64,000 nt of DNA from positions 292,020,001 through 292,084,000 of the forward strand of contig OZ024743.1 of NCBI GenBank assembly GCA_964016885.1, given 5' to 3'. A program made the translations under genes and the position numbers. The notes beneath the pieces were generated by a model. The model saw nothing but the letters and a program-made list of their open reading frames with translations. It did no database searches and was not told the DNA's origin. The stretch comes from Eledone cirrhosa (taxonomy: Eukaryota). Each line of letters opens with the position of its first letter. Within the stretch, counting starts at the first letter, position 1. Below, piece after piece: positions 2,377 to 39,969 of the stretch.

Positions 2377-3420
2377 ACAAAAAGTTTAACAAGGTTCATT
2401 GATTAATCAATGAATAAAGTTTTACATAAGTTTAGAAGCACTCAACAAAGAGATTATCTGGAGTTATTAATATTACTTCAAAATATTAATAAATATAGAC
2501 ATTCATGTGATCAAATATATTTTATTATACATATTTCAGAGGTACTGAGCTATATCATCAATTTATATAAGAACTAGACAAATGTTTATATCTAAATAAA
2601 TCTGGTTTAATAATATCATTTTTACTACATTTATAAGCTTTATGGATAGTTAATAACATTTTAAATTTTTATCTTTCTAACTAAATTATTGACTATATTT
2701 AATAATTTAAATATACTCTTGATTACCCTTGGAATTATGTTAAATTATCTATTTCACTATATATTTGTTTTAATTTTGATATAATACAATAATATAGGTT
2801 CTTTCAAATATTATAGTCTAACAATTTCAAGTTATTAAATTAATTGATTATTTCTAATTAACTTAATATTTGAAAAAAAACGGTCACGCATCATATACCT
2901 CGATTCTCCTTCTCCTTATGTAATTGTATGTTACCACACATAGCTCCCTTCCTTTGTTTTTAGTATCATCTCTCTTTCCTTTTCTTTCTCTCCTCTAGTT
3001 AACTCTCTCGCTCTCTCTTTTGCTCCTTCTATAATACGGAGGTATACATATTTTATTATTTAAATGTTTAACAGTTATGTAGTTATATGTTTATATTTTT
3101 TTACTTTTCTTTATATATACTTATTATATTTATTACTTATTAATATATGTTTTTTATACACCTTTTCCTACGTACCCTTTATATTATATGTAGTTTTTCA
3201 TGTTACAACTTATTGTATATAAATATTGAGATTTGTCATCACTAATCACTGCAAAAGACTGGAATTGAACCATCAGCACAGTTGAGGTATGTCAAACATC
3301 AATTTATTTTATTTGATGAGGACGTACTGATGAAATAGCTCAGTACCTCTGAAATATGTATAATAAAATATATTTGATTACATGAATGGCTATATATATT
3401 AATATTTTGAAGTAATATAT
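2377..3420 (+). mobile_element. AT-rich PLE-like element with inverted ~85-bp copy and degenerate hammerhead
   Basis: 2470-2558 is the reverse complement of about 3326-3418. Near 3313-3365: TTGATGA-GG..GTACTGA..TCAGTAC-CTC-T-GAAA-TATGTATA. Flanked by (TA)n. Confidence 0.5.
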
Positions 3421-3724
3421 CTATATATATATATATAAAATATTTGCTCTACGGTTCTTATATTTTTTATATATATTTATCCTTATCGAACCCTCTTTGG
3501 ATTTTAGTCTTCAAATTTATTATTATTACTATATATATATATATATATAAGTATGTATACGTACATACATATATGTGTACAGATGTACAATAGTATGTAT
3601 ATATATATACATACATGCACACATATATATATATGTACGTATGGGTTTACCGAACATTTATTATAATTACGCCGTACAGTGCACGGCAACCATCGTCGCC
3701 CTTTTGTTCAACACTGACACAGGA

Positions 3725-3766
3725 ACGATGTACTAGTTTCAAGCTTATTAGCTATCGTCAGCATCG
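3725..3766 (-). ncRNA. Type I hammerhead ribozyme (family B)
   Basis: CGATG-CTGACGA-T-AGCT-AATA-AGCT-T-GAAAC-TA-GTA^CATCG. Confidence 0.85.
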
Positions 3767-4158
3767 AATACCTTTGTGTCAGATGATTGAACGTTTGAAA
3801 GTATATACTTTCCTTATGCATAATAACGGCTGAGCAACCTAATTTGCATATCGAGTGAGTTAGTCGGCCGGGCGCACCGAAAACGATAAATGGAAAAGAA
3901 TGAAACAAAATTTCATTTCTCACTCTTACTACGGCTAATACCTAAATATAAGTATGTATACGTACATACATATATGTGTACAGACGTACACTAGTATGTA
4001 TATATATATGCATACATGCATACATGCACACGTCTATATATCTACGTATGCGTTTACCGAACATTTATTATAATGTTCGGTTTGTTTGTAAATAAACAGC
4101 CCGAATTACGCATTGCGCGGCAACCATCGTCGCCCTTTTTTTCAACACTGACATAGGA

Positions 4159-4200
4159 ACGATGTACTAGTTTCAAGCTTATTAGCTATCATCAGCATCG

Positions 4201-4201
<1 letters not shown>
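4159..4201 (-). ncRNA. Type I hammerhead ribozyme (family B)
   Basis: ACGATG-CTGATGA-T-AGCT-AATA-AGCT-T-GAAAC-TA-GTA^CATCGT. Confidence 0.85.
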
Positions 4202-4236
<35 letters not shown>

Positions 4237-4289
4237 CATACCCTCAATCTCATTTTGAACTGCGTCAATGGTAGTTAAATAGCCCAACC

Positions 4290-5860
4290 TTTGGTACAAC
4301 AAGTTTGGGCTCATTTTCCTCTAAGTATTGGGAAAGTGATTTGATGTCATATGCTGTCTCCCGCACAAGATCTGGGGCCAACGTATTAGCTTCCTCTCTG
4401 ACGGTTGACGGCAAGCCATACGTCGCCAGCTCACTCCCACCAATGTCGAGGAGGGTGTCCTCGATATCAATGAGTGCTCTGTTGAAGATTATGTCGCTGT
4501 AACCAAATTCCACTGAAGTATACTGCAGATGAGCCAGGCGCAGGAGGTCCTCAGACATGAAATCTCTGTACTTGACTCATAAAGATTTGGGATCACCCAA
4601 TTCACAATTTTGAAGCGAAATGGCAAAGAGTTCCCGTAGACCTTTAGGTGATTTCAACAAAGTGAAATCCCATTGCGAATCATCTTCCAAAAGACCACGC
4701 TTAAAGCAGGCTTCCCGGTACGTATCACATATTTCTCCATCAACAGTTTTGAGGTCCTGAAAACTTTGTGGGTCTACAACTTCATGCAGAAGAAGGCGGA
4801 GATGAAAGCACTCATGCTGACTTGGGGGCACAGTGTAAACCCTTCCAAGACAGCTGTCAAATTTTACACCAGGATGTCTTTCAACAGCCTGACCTGACTT
4901 TCTTCGCAACCACGTGTTTTTCGACCATATAAAGTAGGATGGAACTTGGGGGTACAAAATTGTTTGCGCAAATGTATCGAACTGGCAATGTTTGAAGAGA
5001 CCCGCCAGAGTGGTCTCTTTCAGATCGGCGGCCAACTTGGCGGCAGTTTGGTCCGTAAATAAACCCTTTGCCAATTTTCCAAATGTACCGCAAGCTGTAC
5101 GATGGCGGGGTGCCGTTGGTGTAGGGGTAAACTAAATAGGCGCCGAAAAGCTTCATTCCTACTGATGTACCGCCTCGCCAGGTATTCTGTGACCTCGTCC
5201 CTGCTATTTTCAGCTTGAAATGCGAATATTGCAGCATCAGAGCCCTTATTTACATATTTGCATATGTATTTTATCGACTTGCCAGAGTTGCAAAACTCAA
5301 TGTTGATCTGGGTGTTGAACATCTTCAAGAGAAGCGGGCAGTAAGGGACCATCCATCTATTGTCGACGACTTGACCTCCCTTTACTGTTGTGGTGAAACC
5401 ACCGTTCTCGGACCGTCGCAGCCTCTACAGGGGGTACCCGTCGCCACCAGTCTGAGTCTGGTCAACAAATTTTTTTGGGTGTCCCCTACTGCACGACCCC
5501 CCCTTTCAGACACGTGTGATGCTCATTAGGACCCGACGCACACGGACCATGTTAGTTTTGACGATGTAATGTAATTCCTGGTCAGTTGCTGGGTTAGTGA
5601 TTTCAGCCGAAATGAACCTGTCTATGGCATATGAATTGATTTTATCAGCTAACCAAATCAAAATGTGAGCATGTGGCAGCTCTCGCTTTTGCCATTCGAC
5701 CGTGAACATGTCACATTTTACAGCCCCAAATACCAGACTTTTTTTTATTAAAGCCATGAGTGAAGCCAGTTTCAGTCTGAACACTCTGGCAATGAGGTCA
5801 TGGCTATTCGAATAATTTTGCCCAGGAAAAAGTTCACCGGTTACATTCCGATTCATATGT
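4290..5860 (-). pseudogene. Helitron RepHel fragment (Rep/HUH nuclease region), frameshifted
   Basis: ORF pieces contain VEWQKRELPHAHILIWL (HUH motif 2), KYICKYVNKG (motif 3) and GRVYTVPP..ECFHLRLLL..V..PQSFQDLKTVDG. Confidence 0.9.
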
Positions 5861-6322
5861 CTATAGCATTAATCTGTTATATGAAGTGTTATTTTGCAGG
5901 TTGTTATTTGCAATAAGCCGATTGAAAATGCCCCAGATAAGCCGTATGTCAATACGGAACGCTGCACTTAGGTGTTGTCATATAGCGATTGAAGAGCGAC
6001 AGAGAGAGTAAAGCAGTTAAAGTATAGAGAGAGAGAATATACGGAACGCTCCATTTGATCTTAACATTGTTTATCTCTCGGCAGTGTTGTCATATGGGGA
6101 GTGAAGAGCAACAGAGAGAGTAAAGCAGTTAAATTATAGAGAGGGTGAATGATCATGATCGATGTTTGCCCTTATTGTTGATGGATTCGAAAGTTCTTTG
6201 CTTCATGACCCTTTCCTGACCGAGAGCAATAATCGTCCAGATTTTGAATAGAATCCGTTGGGAATTGTGGACGTGCATGCGTTACAAACCTTAACACACA
6301 CATCCTCAGCTTTATATATATA
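5861..6322 (-). mobile_element. Helitron 5' non-coding region and terminus
   Basis: Minus strand starts TATATATATAAAGCTGAGGATGTGTGTG, which resembles Helitron 5' ends, and lies upstream of the Rep fragment. Confidence 0.55.
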
Positions 6323-6380
6323 AAAAATAATTAAGTCAAATATGTATAATTTGGCTTCGTTTATTATATATTATAGATAT

Positions 6381-6435
6381 ACTGCTATATATATTTCGGT
6401 GACAGCCATCATTGGCTGTAACCTCTTCAGGCAGT
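6381..6435 (-). ncRNA. Type I hammerhead ribozyme (family C)
   Basis: ACTGC-CTGAAGA-GGTTACAGCCA-ATGA-TGGCTGTCACC-GAAA-TATATATA^GCAGT. Confidence 0.85.
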
Positions 6436-6629
6436 CCGAATTTGTGTTGGAAAGACAGGTACACATGTTGTTGAAGGGTGTTTTACTCCGTCAATACATC
6501 GATATGTCCAGCTTCTGTTGTTATTCTCCTGAGGATAACAACACAACCAGGAGCTGAACATATCGATGTATTGACGGAGTAAAACACCCTTTAACAACAT
6601 GTGTACCTGTCTTTCCCACACCAATTCAG

Positions 6630-6684
6630 ACTGCCTGAAGAGGTGACAGCCAATGATGGCTGTCACCGAAATATATATACCAGT
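6630..6684 (+). ncRNA. Type I hammerhead ribozyme (family C)
   Basis: ACTGC-CTGAAGA-GGTGACAGCCA-ATGA-TGGCTGTCACC-GAAA-TATATATA^CCAGT; perfect 11-bp stem II, one stem I mismatch. Confidence 0.8.
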
Positions 6685-6860
6685 ATATCTATAATTTATA
6701 ATAAACGAAGCCAAATTATACATATTTGTCTTAATTATTTTACATTACACCGGAGTAAACAAACAAAGCTGCGTACTTCGTCGAATTCTCCAATCTGCAT
6801 ACTGAAGTGTCGGTAAACAACCAACCTATACTCAAAATGTATATATATATATATATATAT

Positions 6861-6904
<44 letters not shown>

Positions 6905-7059
6905 ATATACACGGGTGTGTATGATTGTGTATAGAAGATTATATTAATAAGAGCAATTTCAACTTTGTCTGATTTACTCGTTTTATTTACAATCCTTTAA
7001 AATTTATAATGGTATTATAATGAAATAGTATGATAGAATATTAAATTCTAAGTGTTAAT

Positions 7060-7098
7060 TGAACAAGTACTTTCATGCTTTCGCAATCTTCAGGTTCA
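7060..7098 (-). ncRNA. Minimal type I hammerhead ribozyme (family D)
   Basis: Reverse complement of 7172-7210. Confidence 0.8.
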
Positions 7099-7171
7099 TA
7101 ATATGTGGTGACAGTCAAGTTTGCAATTTTCAACAGTTGAAAATTGCAAACTTGACTGTCACCACATATTA

Positions 7172-7210
7172 TGAACCTGAAGATTGCGAAAGCATGAAAG
7201 TACTTGTTCA
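7172..7210 (+). ncRNA. Minimal type I hammerhead ribozyme (family D)
   Basis: TGAAC-CTGAAGA-T-TGC-GAAA-GCA-T-GAAAG-TA-CTT^GTTCA. Confidence 0.8.
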
Positions 7211-7350
7211 ATTAACACTTAGAATTTAATATTCTATCATACTATTTCATTATAATACCATTATACATTTTAAAGGATTGTAAATAAAACGAGTAAATCA
7301 GACAAAGTTAGAATTCCTCTGATTAATATATATATATATACATATATATA

Positions 7351-9600
7351 CTAGCGCCATACCCGGCGTTGCCCAGGTGTAAGTCTACCATTAGTAAATA
7401 ATTTTTTAAAGAGAAAACAACGTAGCACAAACCTAAAAAAAACATTTATTTTAAACCCTAAGAAGTATGTGTTGTTCGATGTAAAAACAGTAAAATGTTA
7501 TGGCATATGAAATGTGAATGAGTATAAAAGTGTGACGTTCACGCGGTGGAGCTGCAAACGCGAACTATGCCAGAAGAAAGTCAGAAGCCCAAAAGTGAGT
7601 CACATGGAATGTATGACAATAATGTGGGATGTTTGGCAATTCGGGGACTGAAGTCGTTGCGGGATGGCGGAGATAATGTATGACGACTTTGAGTGAATGG
7701 TACAAATGAGAAGGGTGCCATACGTTTGCTACAGTAAAACCATGTGCATTTTTCGTTATGCATTGCGTATATGTAGGCATTCTAATGATTTACGTAGTTT
7801 GAAATGCTTATCACTCTGTATAGTTGTGGCTGCCAATAGAAACTCTGCAGTGACATAGACCAAATATGAAGGACGCTCAAAATTACTCAACACAAATTTT
7901 GCACCAACTCGATTGCTAAAGTAACAGAGAATAACGAATAGCTTTTATTACGCCAAAAGAAAAATGCTAAAGCAACTTCTATTGCACGAGATGCAGAAAA
8001 CGAAACACAACGTTCGATGCGACAGCAAATAAATGCTGAGGCAACTGCTGCTGCTTGAGGTGCAGAAAACGATTATCAACCCTCACTGCGACAGAAAGCA
8101 AATATTGAGGCAACGTCTATTGCAGGAGATGCAGACAACGAACCACAGCGTTCATTATGGCGGCATAGAAATGCTGAGGCAACTTCCGCAGCTCGAGCTG
8201 CATGAATCGAAACACAGTGTCAACTGCGGGAGCAAAGAACTGTGAGTCATCGTCTGTTGTTTGAGCTGTATCAACCGAAACACAGCTTCAACTGCGGCAG
8301 CAAAGACATGTGAATCAACGTCTGCTGCACGCGCTGGCAAATCCATGGAAAACTGGCTCAACCAACCAGAGGGGAACGTGCATTTCAATACCGTGCAGCT
8401 CAAAGTGTTCACAACGTTTACAGTCGAAAAGTATGGTGTTATGAATTTCAAAAAGGCAGTATGTTTACAATTTGGTAATTATTGAAAGCAGCGCGGTATT
8501 TGATTGTTAGAAAACGGTTTGTGTCGCAGTGTTGATTACAGAACTTCTTGGTACACAATGTTTGTGGTTTTACCGTTTGGAGCAAATGCATAAAGGTTTC
8601 CTTTGCCTCCCACTCTGGATCATCCAACGTATAGCTGACCGTGCTAAAAGCATGGCTCTTCTAGGTTTATTCCCGCGACGGACAATGTTTGTCCCTGAGA
8701 CTTATTAATCGTCATAGCGAAACTACAACGAACTGGAAACTGGAGCCTCCTGAATGAAAAGAGGATCTCTAATGTTGACGGACAAAGAGGAATCCTTGAG
8801 ATGAAAATATGTTCCTACTTTCCACATCCCGAGAGAATCGTCGCCTTGATCAAGTTTTGCGTTAGTTTATTTACTGTAAGGCGGGAGCCGTTGCAGAGTT
8901 TTGGTGTAGATCCTTGCTTAAGTTCCAATCGATGAGATGGCAACCCGGATAGGTTCAATGAGTTAAGAAAATCAATTGGGTAGTTAAAGGGGTTTGTGAC
9001 TATAACGATAGGCTTTTATGTACACGAAGCCGTAGGAAGAGACTTAAGCAGTTGTCCGTTGATTTTGTCGAGAGTCTTATTTTTCGGAGCCAGTATTGAC
9101 CTTTCGCACAGCCAGTTTGGATTTTGGTAGTTAGTGCTCAACTGCAGCTGTCAAGTCGTCAGCACTGTCGACTAAAGTGCAGACCGGTTCGAGGGAGATT
9201 TGTTCATCTTTATCAAGTGGTTGGTAGCAAAATCTGATGACACTTGTTCACCAAGCATCCGAGCTTTAATGTTCGTAGAGAGCGTTAATGTTGTGACATA
9301 ACACCAAAGCGGAGATAACATTAAGCATGCTCGAATAGCATCAGCCCTTGCTCCTTTGGGAATAATAGGGAGGGTTTGTCTAACATCTCCGGATAAAAGG
9401 ACAGTCACGCCTCTCATGGGATCCTGGGAGTCTCTTATGTCTCTTAAAGTCCGGTCCAGTGCTTCCAAAGCTCCTTTATGAGCCATGGTACATTCATGCC
9501 AAACTATAAGTTCACACCTTTTAAGCAGTTCTGCCTTTTCTGATCCTTTGGTAATATTACAGCAGAGTGTCATTTGCTGTCATATTGAGAGGGAGTTTGC
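7351..9600 (-). mobile_element. Helitron 3' portion with decayed PIF1 helicase and CTAG terminus
   Basis: ORF 9172-9573 has LIVWHECTMAHKGALEALDRTLRDI..GDVRQTLP; about 8600-8740 encodes QFPVR..FAMTINKSQGQTL..GQLYV. The minus strand ends with a GC-rich hairpin (CCTGGGCAACGCCGGG) and then CTAG at 7351. Confidence 0.9.
7930..8250 (+). repeat. Degenerate 69-bp tandem repeat encoding 23-aa STPR-like units
   Basis: AAT(G/A)(C/T)T..GCAAC recurs at 7963, 8032, 8101 and 8170; translates as AR.AE.E.QR..R...NAEAT with stops. Confidence 0.6.
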
Positions 9601-14230: not shown

Positions 14231-14590
14231 GAGTACTCATATATAGGTGCGACATCCACTATCTTTAAGGAGCGCTAGTATAACCACAGAAGATCCTTCA
14301 AACATAGACTGAAACGACCCCAAACCAGACTGTCCGACTTGATCTGGGACCTCAAGGACAGGAATATTGAACCCCAGATTTAGTGGTCAGTGAAAAGACG
14401 CGTGGCACATATCCCCAGTGACAGAAACCACTGCAGATTATGCCTGGCTGAGGCGGCGGAAATAATTAAAATAAAATCCGCCATAAACTATAGGTCGGAC
14501 ATAATTGTCAATTGCAGACACACCAGGCTGAACACCTTTTCCGCACAAACATTCGGGGGAGGGCCACGCACTAACCATGACCCACCATAA
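14231..14590 (+). pseudogene. Penelope-like element C-terminal GIY-YIG endonuclease remnant
   Basis: Manual translation from 14240: YIGATSTIFKER*YNHRRSFKH...TRLSDLIWDLKD...I*WSV...HCRLCLAEAAEII...INYRSDIIVNCRH. Two in-frame stops. Confidence 0.85.
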
Positions 14591-30939: not shown

Positions 30940-33830
30940 TTGACTTTGATAACTTTAACTTTGATAGGTTTCGGCGAGTATTGGCCCAGGCCATGTATAA
31001 CTTAATAGCACCATCTGGCGAAGTCTTACAAATCAGTGTTTCGGCACCATGGCCCACTGGTGCAGAGAGTTATTTTTTACGGAGGCATATCCGGGTGTAG
31101 GAGGCTTATCCGGGATTTCTTGAAGGAATTTATCCAAAGACTTCTTGAACTTGATGGGGTCTGTCTCTGCTCTGATGTGTCTTGGTGTAATGTTAAAGAG
31201 TGGAGGGCCAATTGAGGTGAAATAATTGTGCCGATTTGTTATGTGATGCGTGAGATTTTTGTCGTGGGCAGATACTACGCGACCCAAGCCTTGGATGTAC
31301 ACTAAAGGTGACGTCAACATCATTTGGGCAAAGCTGATGGAATATTTTCCACATCATATAGATAATGTGCGCTCACGGCGACGCTGGAGAGAATAAAGTT
31401 TCATTTTTTCTAATCGACCCCAATAGTCAAGGCCTGTCATGTCATCTATCCTTTTTGTAATTGATCTTTGTGGTGCTTCAACTTTCCTAATACTTTGTTT
31501 CGTGTGGGGTGACCACGGTGGACAACACTATTCAAGGTGGGGGTCGGGCAAAAGTGGAGAATAGAAGGATAACAGTGTGGATATCTCTCGACTGGAAAAC
31601 TGTAAGAATCCAGGAACACATTCAGCGGGCGATATCAACTTTGTTGTTTATATGAGTGGCCCAGCTTATGCTGTTGTCCACAATTACTCCCACGTCTCTG
31701 ATGTTATTGGAGGCCACTAGAGTTTCACCCGAAGGAAGAGAGTATGGTAGTTTTAGGGCATCATTTTTTCCAAAGTGGATTAATTCATATTAATCCTCAT
31801 TCAACAGCATATTATTCATTTCTGCCCATTGGATAACAGCCAGTAGGTCTGACTGAAGGCAAGTTCGGTCACCCACCCCATTGATGACCCTTTGGATTTT
31901 GGAAAAATCTGCGAAGATTCTGATGTTGCTGTGCTTGATGAAGTCAGTAATGTCATTAATGTATATGATGAAAAGAAGTGCGCCCAACACAGTGCCTTGT
32001 GGGACGCCACTGCTGACTTTGGCAGGGCTTAATTTTACTCCTTCGACTACAACATGCTGGGTTCTGCCTGTCAGGAAACATTTGATCCACTGTAGTAACC
32101 TTCCAGAGACACCAACATTGCATAGTCTTTTCAGTAGAATCTGATGATCAACCCTGTCAAAGGCGTTGCTGAAGTCAAGGTAGATGACATCAGTGTTGGA
32201 GCCCTCTCCCAAGGCTCTCAAAACATTTTCAAAGTGATGCAGAAGCTGCGTTAGGCAGTCTCTTCCATTACGGAACCCATGTTGGTTGGAGTTCAGCAGG
32301 CCGTTGCTTTCAAGAAAGTGGGTTATTTGTGATCTCACCACCCTCTCAAATACCTTGATAACATAAGAGGTGAGTGAGTTCGGACGGTAGTTCACTGCAA
32401 GGGACTTATTTCCCTTTTTGAAGACTGGGACAACGGACTGGGACAGAAAGTTTTCAGAAATATAGCCAGTGTCCAGTGAGTTCCTCCACAGATTAGCAAG
32501 AGAGGATGCAAGTTGGTGTCGACATACTTTCAGGACACATGCAGGGAACCAATCAGGGCCTACTGCTGTATTGTGTTTAATTTCGTTTATTGCCGCTAAT
32601 ACATCAGAGGCGCCAGACGTTATGTCTGATATAGTGTGTTGGGGGTTAACATCACTGATACGGCCCAGAACGGCCATATCAGGATTGCTGAAAACAGAGC
32701 AGTATTGTTTCTGCAGTATCTCGCCCATGGTTTTCGCATTGTCCTGGCGTGTTCCATTTTCATCAACTAGGGGGCCAACAGTAGAGACGGTGACCTTGTG
32801 GTGTTTTTTAGCAAATGAAAAGAACACTTTGGGGTTGAGTTTGATTTTCCCAATAGCCCACCTCTCTTCAGCTATTCTCTGGTTATTGATGATAGTCATC
32901 ATGCATTGCTGGCGGTTATATTATTTTGACACAAGCAGGGTGATAGCCATTGAATGTGTGTGTTGCTGTTGACAGTATTATAGTGTGTTGATTTTTTTGT
33001 TTGTTCTTTTTATTTTTCTGAATATTGTTACTTTCTGTTTTGGGGGAAACTGCACTTGGTTTTGTTCACAGGTTTTGGTGGGGTGTGTTTTGTACATATA
33101 TTTGTGACAGTGTCTACAAAGATCTGCCAAGATGTTTTGATGTTGGTAGAAGTGTGTGCGTGTGTAAAAGACCAGTCGACATGTGATAGTTCGTTCATAA
33201 TTGCATCCCAGTTGGCATTGTAGGGATCCATGTTATCAAACGGGTGGGCTGGAGTGAGGACCCTGGGATTAGCTTTCGGCTGATGGAATCTCAGGTTACA
33301 AAGAACCATGTCATGGTCTGAGAGAAGTGTTTTTTCCACTGTAATATTATGTATAGTGTTAGTGTGGTTACTAAACACTACATCCACAATGTTCTTCTGA
33401 TGCCTCGTTGGTGCAAGGACATGTTGGGACAAGAAAAACTCATTCATGAAGTCAAGTAGTGATTCGACAGCCTCTTTGTCAGTGGTTGAGGTTGGGGTGC
33501 CTGGTTTCAAACTACATGTAGACCAATCGACACAGGGTAGATTAAAGTCTCTCATCAAAAGTATGTTGTTTGAATGGCACTGTTTAATAAAGCATTTAAT
33601 ACTGTTGAGGCATTATTTGAAGCAGATTATGGGTATTTGTGGTAGCCTATTGAGTCCAGCTAATGTCAGGTCATTGGCTTTATTGTGCACCGTGACTGAT
33701 TCACAGTAGCCATTGGAGAATGTTGTTTTGCCATCTGCCGTAAAGGAATCATGCAGGAAAATGGTAGTTACACACTTCCTTCTGCCAACACGATCCGCTC
33801 GGATGGTTGTGAAATTTCTCACTCTTACTT
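30940..33830 (-). mobile_element. CR1-clade LINE, 5'-truncated and frameshifted (AP endonuclease plus reverse transcriptase)
   Basis: DFNLP.VDW and SDH (endonuclease, 33028-33558); YRP.SLTS, QHGFR, YLDFS.AFDRV and GVPQGTVLG.LLF.IYINDI (RT, 31790-32902; YADD degenerate to FADF); short (AAAGTT)-type 3' tail. Confidence 0.9.
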
Positions 33831-36029: not shown

Positions 36030-36615
36030 TATAAGTATGAATACTTACATACATACATGTGTACAGGCGCACAGTAGTATCTATATACATACATGCACAC
36101 ATATATATATGTACGTATGGGTTTACCGAACATTTAATATAATGTTCGGTTTGTTTGTAAACAAACAGCCCGAATTACGCCGTACAGTGCTCGGCATCCA
36201 TCGTCGCCCTTTTGTTCAACATTGACACAGGAACGATATACTAGTTTCGAGCTTATTAGCTATCGTCAGCATCCTATACCTTTCTGTCAGATGATTGAAT
36301 GCCTCAAATATATACTTTCCTTGTGCATATTAACGGCTGAGCAGCCTAATTTGCATATCGAGTGAGTTAAGGGCGACGATGTTTACCGAGCACTGTACGG
36401 CGTAATTCGGGCTGTTTGTTTACAAACAAACCGATCATTATAATAAATGTTCGGTAAACCTATACGTACATATATATATATGTGTGCATGTATGTACATA
36501 TATACATACTACTTTGCGTCTGTACACATATATGTATGTACGTATACATAGTTATATTTAGGTACCAGCCGTACTAAGAGTGAGAAATGAAATTTCGTTT
36601 CGTTTCATTATTTTC

Positions 36616-36620
<5 letters not shown>
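36030..36620. mobile_element. Family B element with internal inversion; hammerhead at 36233-36275 (-)
   Basis: Minus-sense copy runs to about 36369 and plus-sense copy starts at about 36370. CTGACGA-TAGCTAATAAGCTC-GAAAC-TA-GTA. Confidence 0.8.
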
Positions 36621-38809: not shown

Positions 38810-39100
38810 CTGACGTTCAATCATCTGGCAGGCAGGTATACGTTGCTGACGATAGGTAATAAGCTTGAATCTAGTACAGCGTTCCTTTGTCAGTGTTGAG
38901 TAAATGAGCAACGATGGTTGCTAGAAACTGTACGGCTTAATTCGGGATGTTTGTTTACAAACACACCGAGCATTTTAATAAATATTCGGTGAATCCATAC
39001 GTACATATATATATATATATATGTGAGCATGTATGTATATATATATATACATACTACTGTACGTCTGTATACATATATGTATGTATGTATACATACTTAT
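38810..39100 (+). mobile_element. Family B copy with degenerate hammerhead at 38840-38882
   Basis: ACGTTG-CTGACGA-TAGGTAATAAGCTT-GAATC-TA-GTA^CAGCGT. Confidence 0.75.
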
Positions 39101-39969
39101 ATATATATATATATATATATATTACATAATTCACAATGATTTGTATTAACTACTATATATTTATATATATATACATATTGGTTTGTGAGTGCGTGTGGGC
39201 GTATGCAAATATAATATTTATAAGCTTAATCGCATTTTTGAAGGTTTTCAATTAGCAAAATATTTCACTCTGTTTAATGCATCTTAGATTTAGCGTTAAA
39301 GTGCTATCTTCATATTTTTAACTATTTATACATCACTACATCTAGACTTCTCAATTACCAAGAAATTGTAAGAGATATAAAAGCTAGGAAGATACCATTT
39401 TATCTAGCTTTCCTGCGGGTTACATTATCTGTCTTAGTTGTCTTGAAAATCATAGATTTTTTCACTTACATTATGTCTGTTAGTTTCCTGCTACCAAATT
39501 ATTCATTGTATTGATGTCTTTCACTTTGTCACCAATTTGGAATTATATGTAACTTTGCTTGCAGTGTCACTTACCAAACTTCAACCTATATATGCCACTA
39601 TGTTAACGATTCTCCATTTTTATGTGTGGATATATAGAAGTACACGAGTGTAAGCCAATATATATATATCATACCAAACACATATACATGCAGTTACGTA
39701 GCACGAATACGGTATCATATAAATAGATTATTTGGCACTGACGTTCGGTTTTGCTTTATTAAATTGGTGTCTACACGACACGCTGGGTAATTGACATAGA
39801 CTCGTGCGTTTACATAACTGGTAAACATTGTTTATCAGGTTTTGTTTTATTTGTAGTGGTGTATGTTACCGTTTTTTCTTAATTAGGTATATTTAATATA
39901 TATCTTTTAATTCTCAATTATAAGTTGTTTGTTGATTATATATCTTTCTATATGTGTGCAGTCATATAC

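Follow-up and report, generated by a model that had tools for sequence, protein, structure and literature searches.

Two hammerhead motifs lie on the same strand of Eledone cirrhosa DNA, a single unit's length apart, and the question they raise is what kind of element carries them and how it is copied. The locus is part of a window of 64,000 nt, the whole stretch of DNA that was analysed. An initial annotation of the window called the element family B and read it as a candidate retrozyme spreading by rolling reverse transcription of a circular RNA. In this report, we found that the locus is one copy, truncated at its 5' end, of an abundant repeat of ~430 nt that encodes no protein and carries a hammerhead motif and the insertion signature of Penelope-like elements (PLEs). 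We put a probability of roughly 0.6 on the reading that the RT/GIY-YIG protein of a coding PLE copies this repeat into the genome, from a monomer RNA that is likely circular. The initial annotation missed the main feature, a complete PLE insertion signature, which points to the likely class of helper enzyme.

Structure of the locus

The two annotated motifs are present, with CUGANGA cores at 4195 and 3761 on the minus strand, 434 nt apart. That no credible ORF lies there also held: the longest ATG ORF overlapping 3540-4205 has 72 aa, and none is conserved as a coding frame. The five family B loci reported in the window are all real. The features are as follows, with consensus positions referring to the family B consensus (431 nt, 37.5% G+C).

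3542..4204, minus strand: family B insertion of ~1.5 units; 5' truncation at consensus 392, followed by a complete unit and a partial one that reaches the short 3' end
4159..4201, minus strand: upstream type I hammerhead motif; core from 4195, predicted cut after 4165
3731..4164, minus strand: cut-to-cut monomer, 434 nt, non-coding; the predicted fold pairs both ends
3943..4049, minus strand: TA/CA-rich hairpin region of the unit; ends at ~3946, the short 3' end of other copies
3886..3942, minus strand: 57-nt "tail" with a hairpin, from the short to the long 3' end (long end ~3886)
3842..3849, minus strand: ATGCAAAT, also kept in sister family A
3725..3767, minus strand: downstream type I hammerhead motif; core from 3761, predicted cut after 3731; stem I reaches ~3708-3792
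3542..3730, minus strand: 3' part unit covering consensus 1-219; a deletion of ~35 nt is private to this copy
3530..3547, no strand: (TA)n target run at the 3' junction
3231..3535, plus strand: end of a neighbouring repeat, outside family B, with a hammerhead-like core at ~3327; family B entered its (TA)n tail
36030..36620, both arms: head-to-head family B pair; minus arm with short end (215), plus arm with long end (274)
38813..39110, plus strand: family B copy, U.G subfamily of stem I; short end
~45312..45843, plus strand: family B copy of one unit plus tail; long end; ribozyme core changed
57926..58651, both arms: head-to-head family B pair; plus arm with short end

The ATGCAAAT stretch resembles what we take to be the octamer promoter motif; the likeness is by motif name, and such a function is putative. 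A TA/CA run (4202-4236) flanks the 5' junction too, and a target duplication is not resolvable at the locus. With its 1.5 units and two motifs, the 3542-4204 locus is not a tandem array, and TRF does not list it. The copy at 45312 has the core CUGAUGG and a broken stem I. It had been described as one monomer plus a terminal redundancy of ~55 bp; it is indeed one unit with consensus 217-276 repeated (~58 nt), but the supposed redundancy is the exact stretch between the two 3' ends.

The neighbouring repeat that family B entered is of PLE type and recurs in the window at 2470-2560 (minus strand). In L106, elsewhere in the genome, this repeat end lies directly beside an inverted RT/GIY-YIG fragment whose clade is a different one, taken here to be Hydra-like. 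The 3' flank common to our locus and another copy (L020) was considered as a part of the element or a duplication and is neither, the two being separate insertions into the TA tail of another repeat. Several other elements share the window. Further hammerhead-like cores belong to other repeat families (13581, plus; 40639-40699, both strands; 44564, minus; 59701, minus), those at 40639-40699 forming a small inverted pair. A GIY-YIG-like fragment at 14237-14539 (plus strand) matches the PLE protein of locus L095 (E 9e-15). Broken frames at 4240-9600 (minus strand) resemble what is presumably a Helitron Rep/helicase, one fragment having no Pfam match, and by eye 31790-33612 (minus strand) holds the endonuclease- and RT-like frames of a LINE.

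Family B is abundant. A 31-mer from its core has 4,002 exact matches across the 3.0-Gb genome and none for the reversed control, from which the total is likely of the order of ten thousand copies. Dispersed copies can hold 2-4 seamless units, up to ~4. There is also a satellite-like array on one contig, with at least 46 units over 20 kb (L171-L172, G000:C5:84391000-84410999), a lower bound, as the array ends beyond the region examined.

The ribozyme motif and its fold

Each motif comprises a 6-bp stem I, a stem II of U.U plus 4 bp, GAAA, a palindromic 6-nt helix III and the triplet GUA, which in both is followed by the 3' strand of stem I; in the 3761 motif the outermost stem I pair is mismatched. 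Stem I has an internal loop and an extension, and loop 2 has 4 nt. The upstream motif is without the extension, since the copy breaks off immediately 5' of the motif. In the predicted fold of the downstream motif stem I is extended (z -3.7), and the monomer folds with its ends paired (z -5.2). Rfam reports no hammerhead at the locus at the gathering score, nor at E up to 10, and its microRNA matches on the TA hairpin are far under their gathering scores. Because Rfam gives no hammerhead match, our ribozyme call is a motif-level one, based on the motif, its stems and their conservation, and cleavage is predicted.

The variation among copies bears on whether this fold matters. The proposed covariation in stem I is real as a subfamily trait, pair 398-3 being A-U in 136, G.U in 36 and U.G in 16 of 201 ribozyme segments; the U.G form, however, represents a single inherited event. 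Variants inherited by several loci break a predicted pair in 6 of 32 cases, versus 207 of 372 for singletons (p 6e-5, on the fold predicted from the consensus), and two of the six are the compensating U.G change. None of the 32 inherited variants falls in the 31-base core, where ~3 would be expected. On this predicted structure, the monomer is under selection as a folded RNA, with inherited variants sparing both the fold and the ribozyme core. As to a possible imprint of RNA editing, the ratio of A/G to T/C changes among these unpolarised variants is 21:10 when shared and 84:85 in singletons (p 0.08).

Insertion ends

The start phases of the copies had been read as circular permutation, and random phases would be evidence of a circle. 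This part of the annotation fails. Variation is confined to the 5' ends, as in ordinary truncation, and the 3' ends sit at fixed points, consensus 216-219 or 276. Ends were first surveyed at 30 loci picked by one half of the unit and 29 picked by the other half, where most 3' ends fell at two points. A second sample was drawn by position (43 loci along the chromosomes, of which four were dropped as repeats of the same insertion). In the remaining 39 copies, 20 3' ends lie at consensus 210-219 (short), 17 at 269-276 (long) and 2 elsewhere, so that 37 of 39 use one of two fixed sites 57 nt apart. A TA run follows the 3' end in 22 of these 37 by a strict rule and in 34 by reading the flanks. Sequencing contigs aligned to the locus, of unspecified kind and from three runs of one study, have loose TA ends at 3946 and 3886-3887, the same two sites.

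Among 75 head-to-head family B pairs, 25 were excluded for having at least one end at neither site. The 50 resolvable pairs are long+short in 49 cases and long+long in one, with no short+short pair (binomial p 4.5e-14). The short class is perhaps inflated by the TA-rich hairpin, but the absence of short+short pairs is not explained in this way. In four pairs (L035, L037, L121, L158) the long arm holds little beyond the tail, which could reflect a collision of two start sites.

Two ends, with the tail at one end of inverted insertions, are the PLE "tail" signature. Passages of PMC3846280 and PMC8557442 describe the tail as an extension that may or may not be present at one end of inverted PLE insertions. 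In vitro, the tail of an anole PLE lies between two internal RT start sites, and the protein, a predicted dimer, nicks and extends both strands (PMC11167929). Further, 5' truncation, partial tandems and head-to-head arms are all present in family B. Its end structure is PLE-like, not LTR-like, and we regard mobilisation by PLEs as very probable.

What is inherited

The cut site is crossed without an indel in 139 of 146 segments, with an indel in 2, and 5 stop nearby; the sample was partly selected for spanning the site. Among loci picked solely by the part behind the cut, 27 of 29 have the whole ribozyme upstream. A cleaved linear monomer, as the usual template, would stop cDNAs at position 1; we rejected this candidate, as only one of these 29 unbiased loci joins there without a ribozyme, and that one (L060) through an internal deletion.

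We then asked whether the units of one insertion are more alike than units of different insertions, using 39 multi-unit copies that were the best matches to a two-unit query or neighbours of exact matches, a sample biased toward long, young copies. The TA hairpin, the long-end bases and CpG sites were left out. At 326 of 11,843 site pairs a derived non-CpG allele is common to units of one insertion; when units are shuffled among copies the fraction is 0.0095, and none of 1,000 shuffles reaches the observed value. Thirteen alleles private to one copy are present in two units of that copy, where 500 null replicates give a mean of 1.1 and a maximum of 7. There are at least five nested subfamily haplotypes, each filling all units of its copies; a single multi-unit copy of the 39 (L127) switches subfamily midway. 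Between last and penultimate units no site differs by 0.2 in frequency, and between penultimate and earlier units one site does.

The sharing of variants within copies, together with the selection on the fold, makes the monomer the unit of inheritance; the replicating unit is the monomer. With the read-through of the cut site, these results bear out the initial description of the element as retrozyme-like, non-coding and monomer-based.

A young sister family

A related repeat, family A, is present in the window at 48420-48720 (minus strand), with its motif at 48687. It has a unit of 466 nt and no ORF, its copies are 98-99% identical, and it is co-linear with family B along the full unit. Stems I and II have changed relative to family B yet remain paired, and the helix III palindrome, the tail hairpin and ATGCAAAT are the same. 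All 23 inverted pairs readable by hand are long+short. In 24 multi-unit insertions, 12 private variants occur in all units, 22 in some and 87 in one, and several insertions have one haplotype common to both inverted arms. Family A is very young and is the best candidate for present activity.

Its arrays reach at least 12 units (L198-L203, L211-L240), with the same two ends. Two of them carry variants at periods of 3 and 4 units (G000:C4:23178600-23184700 and G000:C1:375637000-375644000), and another has two 484-nt units among the 466-nt ones, the additional 18 nt being a duplication exactly at the short end. Such periodic or mixed arrays did not come from a single monomer circle; multimeric circles, later DNA duplication or linear templates could give rise to them.

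Coding PLEs in the genome

A search for GIY-YIG domains yielded 10,597 candidates, of which 150 scored matches were listed and 65 loci read. Coding RT+GIY-YIG PLEs are abundant in this genome, with several families among the 65 loci (L091, L096, L094, L093 and L103). One frame of 938 aa matches RVT_1 and GIY-YIG; its start is frameshifted. Like family B, these coding PLEs combine a hammerhead-like motif with two 3' ends and TA junctions; their only resolvable inverted pair (L105) is long+short. By eye, CCAAT- and TATA-like motifs lie 5' of their ribozymes. The hammerhead core of the L091 family has a U3-A8 change, as noted for Schistosoma in a part of PMC4209133.

Four of the coding PLEs carry a C-x4-CxxC linker, which passages of PMC8557442 tie to the Neptune and Nematis clades and to a hypothesised role in microsatellite targeting. 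From this linker and the TA junctions, the helper of family B is likely Neptune-like, a suggestion drawn from sequence features. Since the insertion signature comes without homology of terminal repeats, it indicates the class of the helper, not its family. Neither family B nor family A is the terminal repeat of an endonuclease locus at any of the 65 loci read among the 150 matches listed. The last 32 nt of family B resemble the short end of one PLE family (shuffle p <=0.005), a pyrimidine-rich, low-complexity similarity and one of 35 comparisons. No PLE ORF was found within the unit or joined to it at a fixed point, the PLE protein matches near family B in 9 of 60 loci being unrelated neighbours. 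Copies beside PLE ORFs (L104 and L085 for family B, L103 and L257 for family A) were considered as links to a partner and set aside as mere neighbours in TA runs. Fixed ends and consistent attachment to a coding PLE had been named in advance as marks of plain solo terminal repeats; fixed 3' ends are indeed seen, and the attachment is absent at the 65 loci.

Route of amplification

We propose the following cycle. A locus with two ribozymes, such as 3542-4204, would be transcribed, perhaps by read-through. The two ribozymes are predicted to pair through the palindromic helix III and to excise a monomer, whose ends, held by stem I, would then be ligated, as in other retrozymes. The protein of a PLE, which likely acts as a dimer, would then attach near the tail hairpin and nick each strand of a (TA)n target, and cDNA would start inside the RNA at both ends of the tail, one strand each, as the genomic pattern suggests and the enzymology of PMC11167929 allows. 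The cDNA would cross the cut site and may circle more than once before stopping at variable points, consistent with the read-through and with copies of ~4 units. Finally, the two cDNAs would be joined head to head, or one would be lost, either outcome matching structures that are seen. In this cycle the circle is probably the recycled form, and rolling reverse transcription is probably the best explanation of monomer inheritance. A circle model has been proposed for PLEs in passages of PMC4209133, and parts of PMC7229834 report the detection of retrozyme circles in coral, mussel and axolotl. Three reports count against a circle. Ribozymes with a minimal helix III cleave poorly in vitro (the relevant part of PMC4209133); only one of nine frog retrozyme dimers was cut, in a section of bioRxiv 10.64898/2026.07.22.740005; and for the anole PLE cleavage is dispensable, uncleaved RNA being the main template (PMC11167929).

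The strongest alternative, which we judge unlikely on balance, is a non-autonomous PLE that does without the circle. Its template would be uncleaved, multi-unit read-through RNA, tandems would be rebuilt by template jumps, re-priming or self-insertion, and the ribozyme would act elsewhere. It predicts the same insertion signature, and the anole PLE takes unprocessed RNA as template and is able to nick its own terminal repeat (PMC11167929); the chimeric copy L127, the heterogeneous family A arrays and the 18-nt duplication exactly at the short end are also in its favour. However, private and subfamily variants fill all units and both inverted arms, and last and penultimate units show no position-specific variants. 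A template jump over a cut end would be expected to leave a scar, and 139 of 146 junctions are clean. Moreover, a purely linear lineage could presumably only shorten, and the ribozyme core is selected in a non-coding unit.

It is improbable that family B consists of plain solo terminal repeats of an unsampled coding PLE, the short copies being truncations of it. All terminal features of PLEs are present, the GIY-YIG loci read were 65 of 150 listed (from 10,597 candidates), and frog retrozymes match PLE terminal repeats in the part of bioRxiv 10.64898/2026.07.22.740005 concerned. Against this, copies continue 5' of the ribozyme into another unit and never into a common ORF, dispersed copies hold 2-4 seamless units, the nearby PLE protein matches (9 of 60 loci) are unrelated neighbours, and family A is co-linear over a whole unit without an ORF. 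A DNA-level satellite, amplified by unequal exchange or extrachromosomal DNA circles with the ribozyme as a passenger, is most improbable. In its favour are the 20-kb array with its 46 or more units, the higher-order periods of family A and the homogenising capacity of conversion. Against it, that array is 86-89% like the consensus versus 96-98% for young dispersed copies, the RNA fold is selected, and reverse transcription is marked by the fixed 3' ends, the truncated 5' ends, the TA junctions and the 49/50 long+short pairs. Exchange explains secondary arrays only, the pairing largely refuting it as the main route.

Returning to the circular monomer, a wider reading can be offered tentatively, at somewhat less than even odds. 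Families B and A may represent an old, still-active lineage of viroid-sized circular RNA, evolving as RNA monomers apart from the terminal repeat of any helper and integrated by a PLE dimer with coupled starts at the two tail ends on one RNA source.

Relationship to known elements

Family B is a non-LTR retrozyme-like, non-autonomous PLE. The kind of element is already known, and bioRxiv 10.64898/2026.07.22.740005 has argued, in passages of that preprint, that animal retrozymes are non-autonomous PLEs. No published description of family B was found in a survey of mostly open-access papers; the supplements of that preprint may list invertebrate families. Within the portions of the literature surveyed, neither a count of long-short pairing nor a unit-level test was found, and a term search of the accessible text of an octopus repeat paper (PMC13282606) gave no mention of hammerheads or ribozymes.

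The metazoan non-LTR retrozymes of Cervera and de la Pena (2020), as treated in parts of PMC7229834, are the nearest in composition. Like family B, they have a type I hammerhead per unit, a unit of 150-450 bp, a G+C content <45% (to 50%) and no ORF; they form dimers to long arrays, their monomer is self-paired, and PLEs are proposed as their helpers. The U.U at the base of stem II is common to family B and one axolotl retrozyme family. In contrast, family B is mostly dispersed, 5'-truncated and of <2 units, with two fixed 3' ends, a tail, inverted arms and TA junctions, features not described in those parts of the paper. Its helix III is minimal, and it is known from sequence, whereas circles and cleavage have been shown for the metazoan retrozymes.

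In their insertions, the closest relatives are the EN+ PLEs (passages of PMC3846280 and PMC8557442; anole Poseidon, PMC11167929), which likewise have two 3' ends bounding a hairpin tail 3' of the ribozyme, 5' truncation, head-to-head arms, a tail at one end and AT-rich targets. Family B differs in having no ORF and a tail of 57 nt versus 30-40 in the cited passages of the first two papers, where the one-end tail is qualitative; in family B it is 49 of 50. Anole Poseidon in vitro has no strand difference in start site, unlike the family B pattern (PMC11167929). The non-autonomous Chlamys PLEs, such as MRC1, are also non-coding and multicopy in head-to-tail arrangement with pseudo-LTRs, but they share a 3' end with autonomous families, and most Chlamys elements have no canonical hammerhead, according to sections of PMC8557442.

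The retrozymes of frogs and other vertebrates (Li, Clavereau and Pollet, bioRxiv 10.64898/2026.07.22.740005) were interpreted, in the portions cited here, as parasites of PLEs, the same conclusion as ours, with monomers dispersed and multimers local. The evidence there is co-occurrence and homology with PLE terminal repeats in vertebrates, and local tandem amplification is favoured; ours comes from the insertion signature and from inheritance at the level of the unit, and helper homology was not found in 65 loci. PMC11167929 and parts of PMC7229834 and that preprint leave open how PLE tandems and inverted copies build up, what the hammerhead does and by which enzyme animal retrozymes are moved. 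A PLE signature on an ORF-free ribozyme monomer, with thousands of copies and a very young sister family, makes the circle model and the coupling of start sites directly testable. If true, the circular-lineage reading would provide a cis-element of 430 nt for insertions driven by PLEs and would be the first genome-level evidence to join the circle model of retrozymes to the two-site initiation of PLEs.
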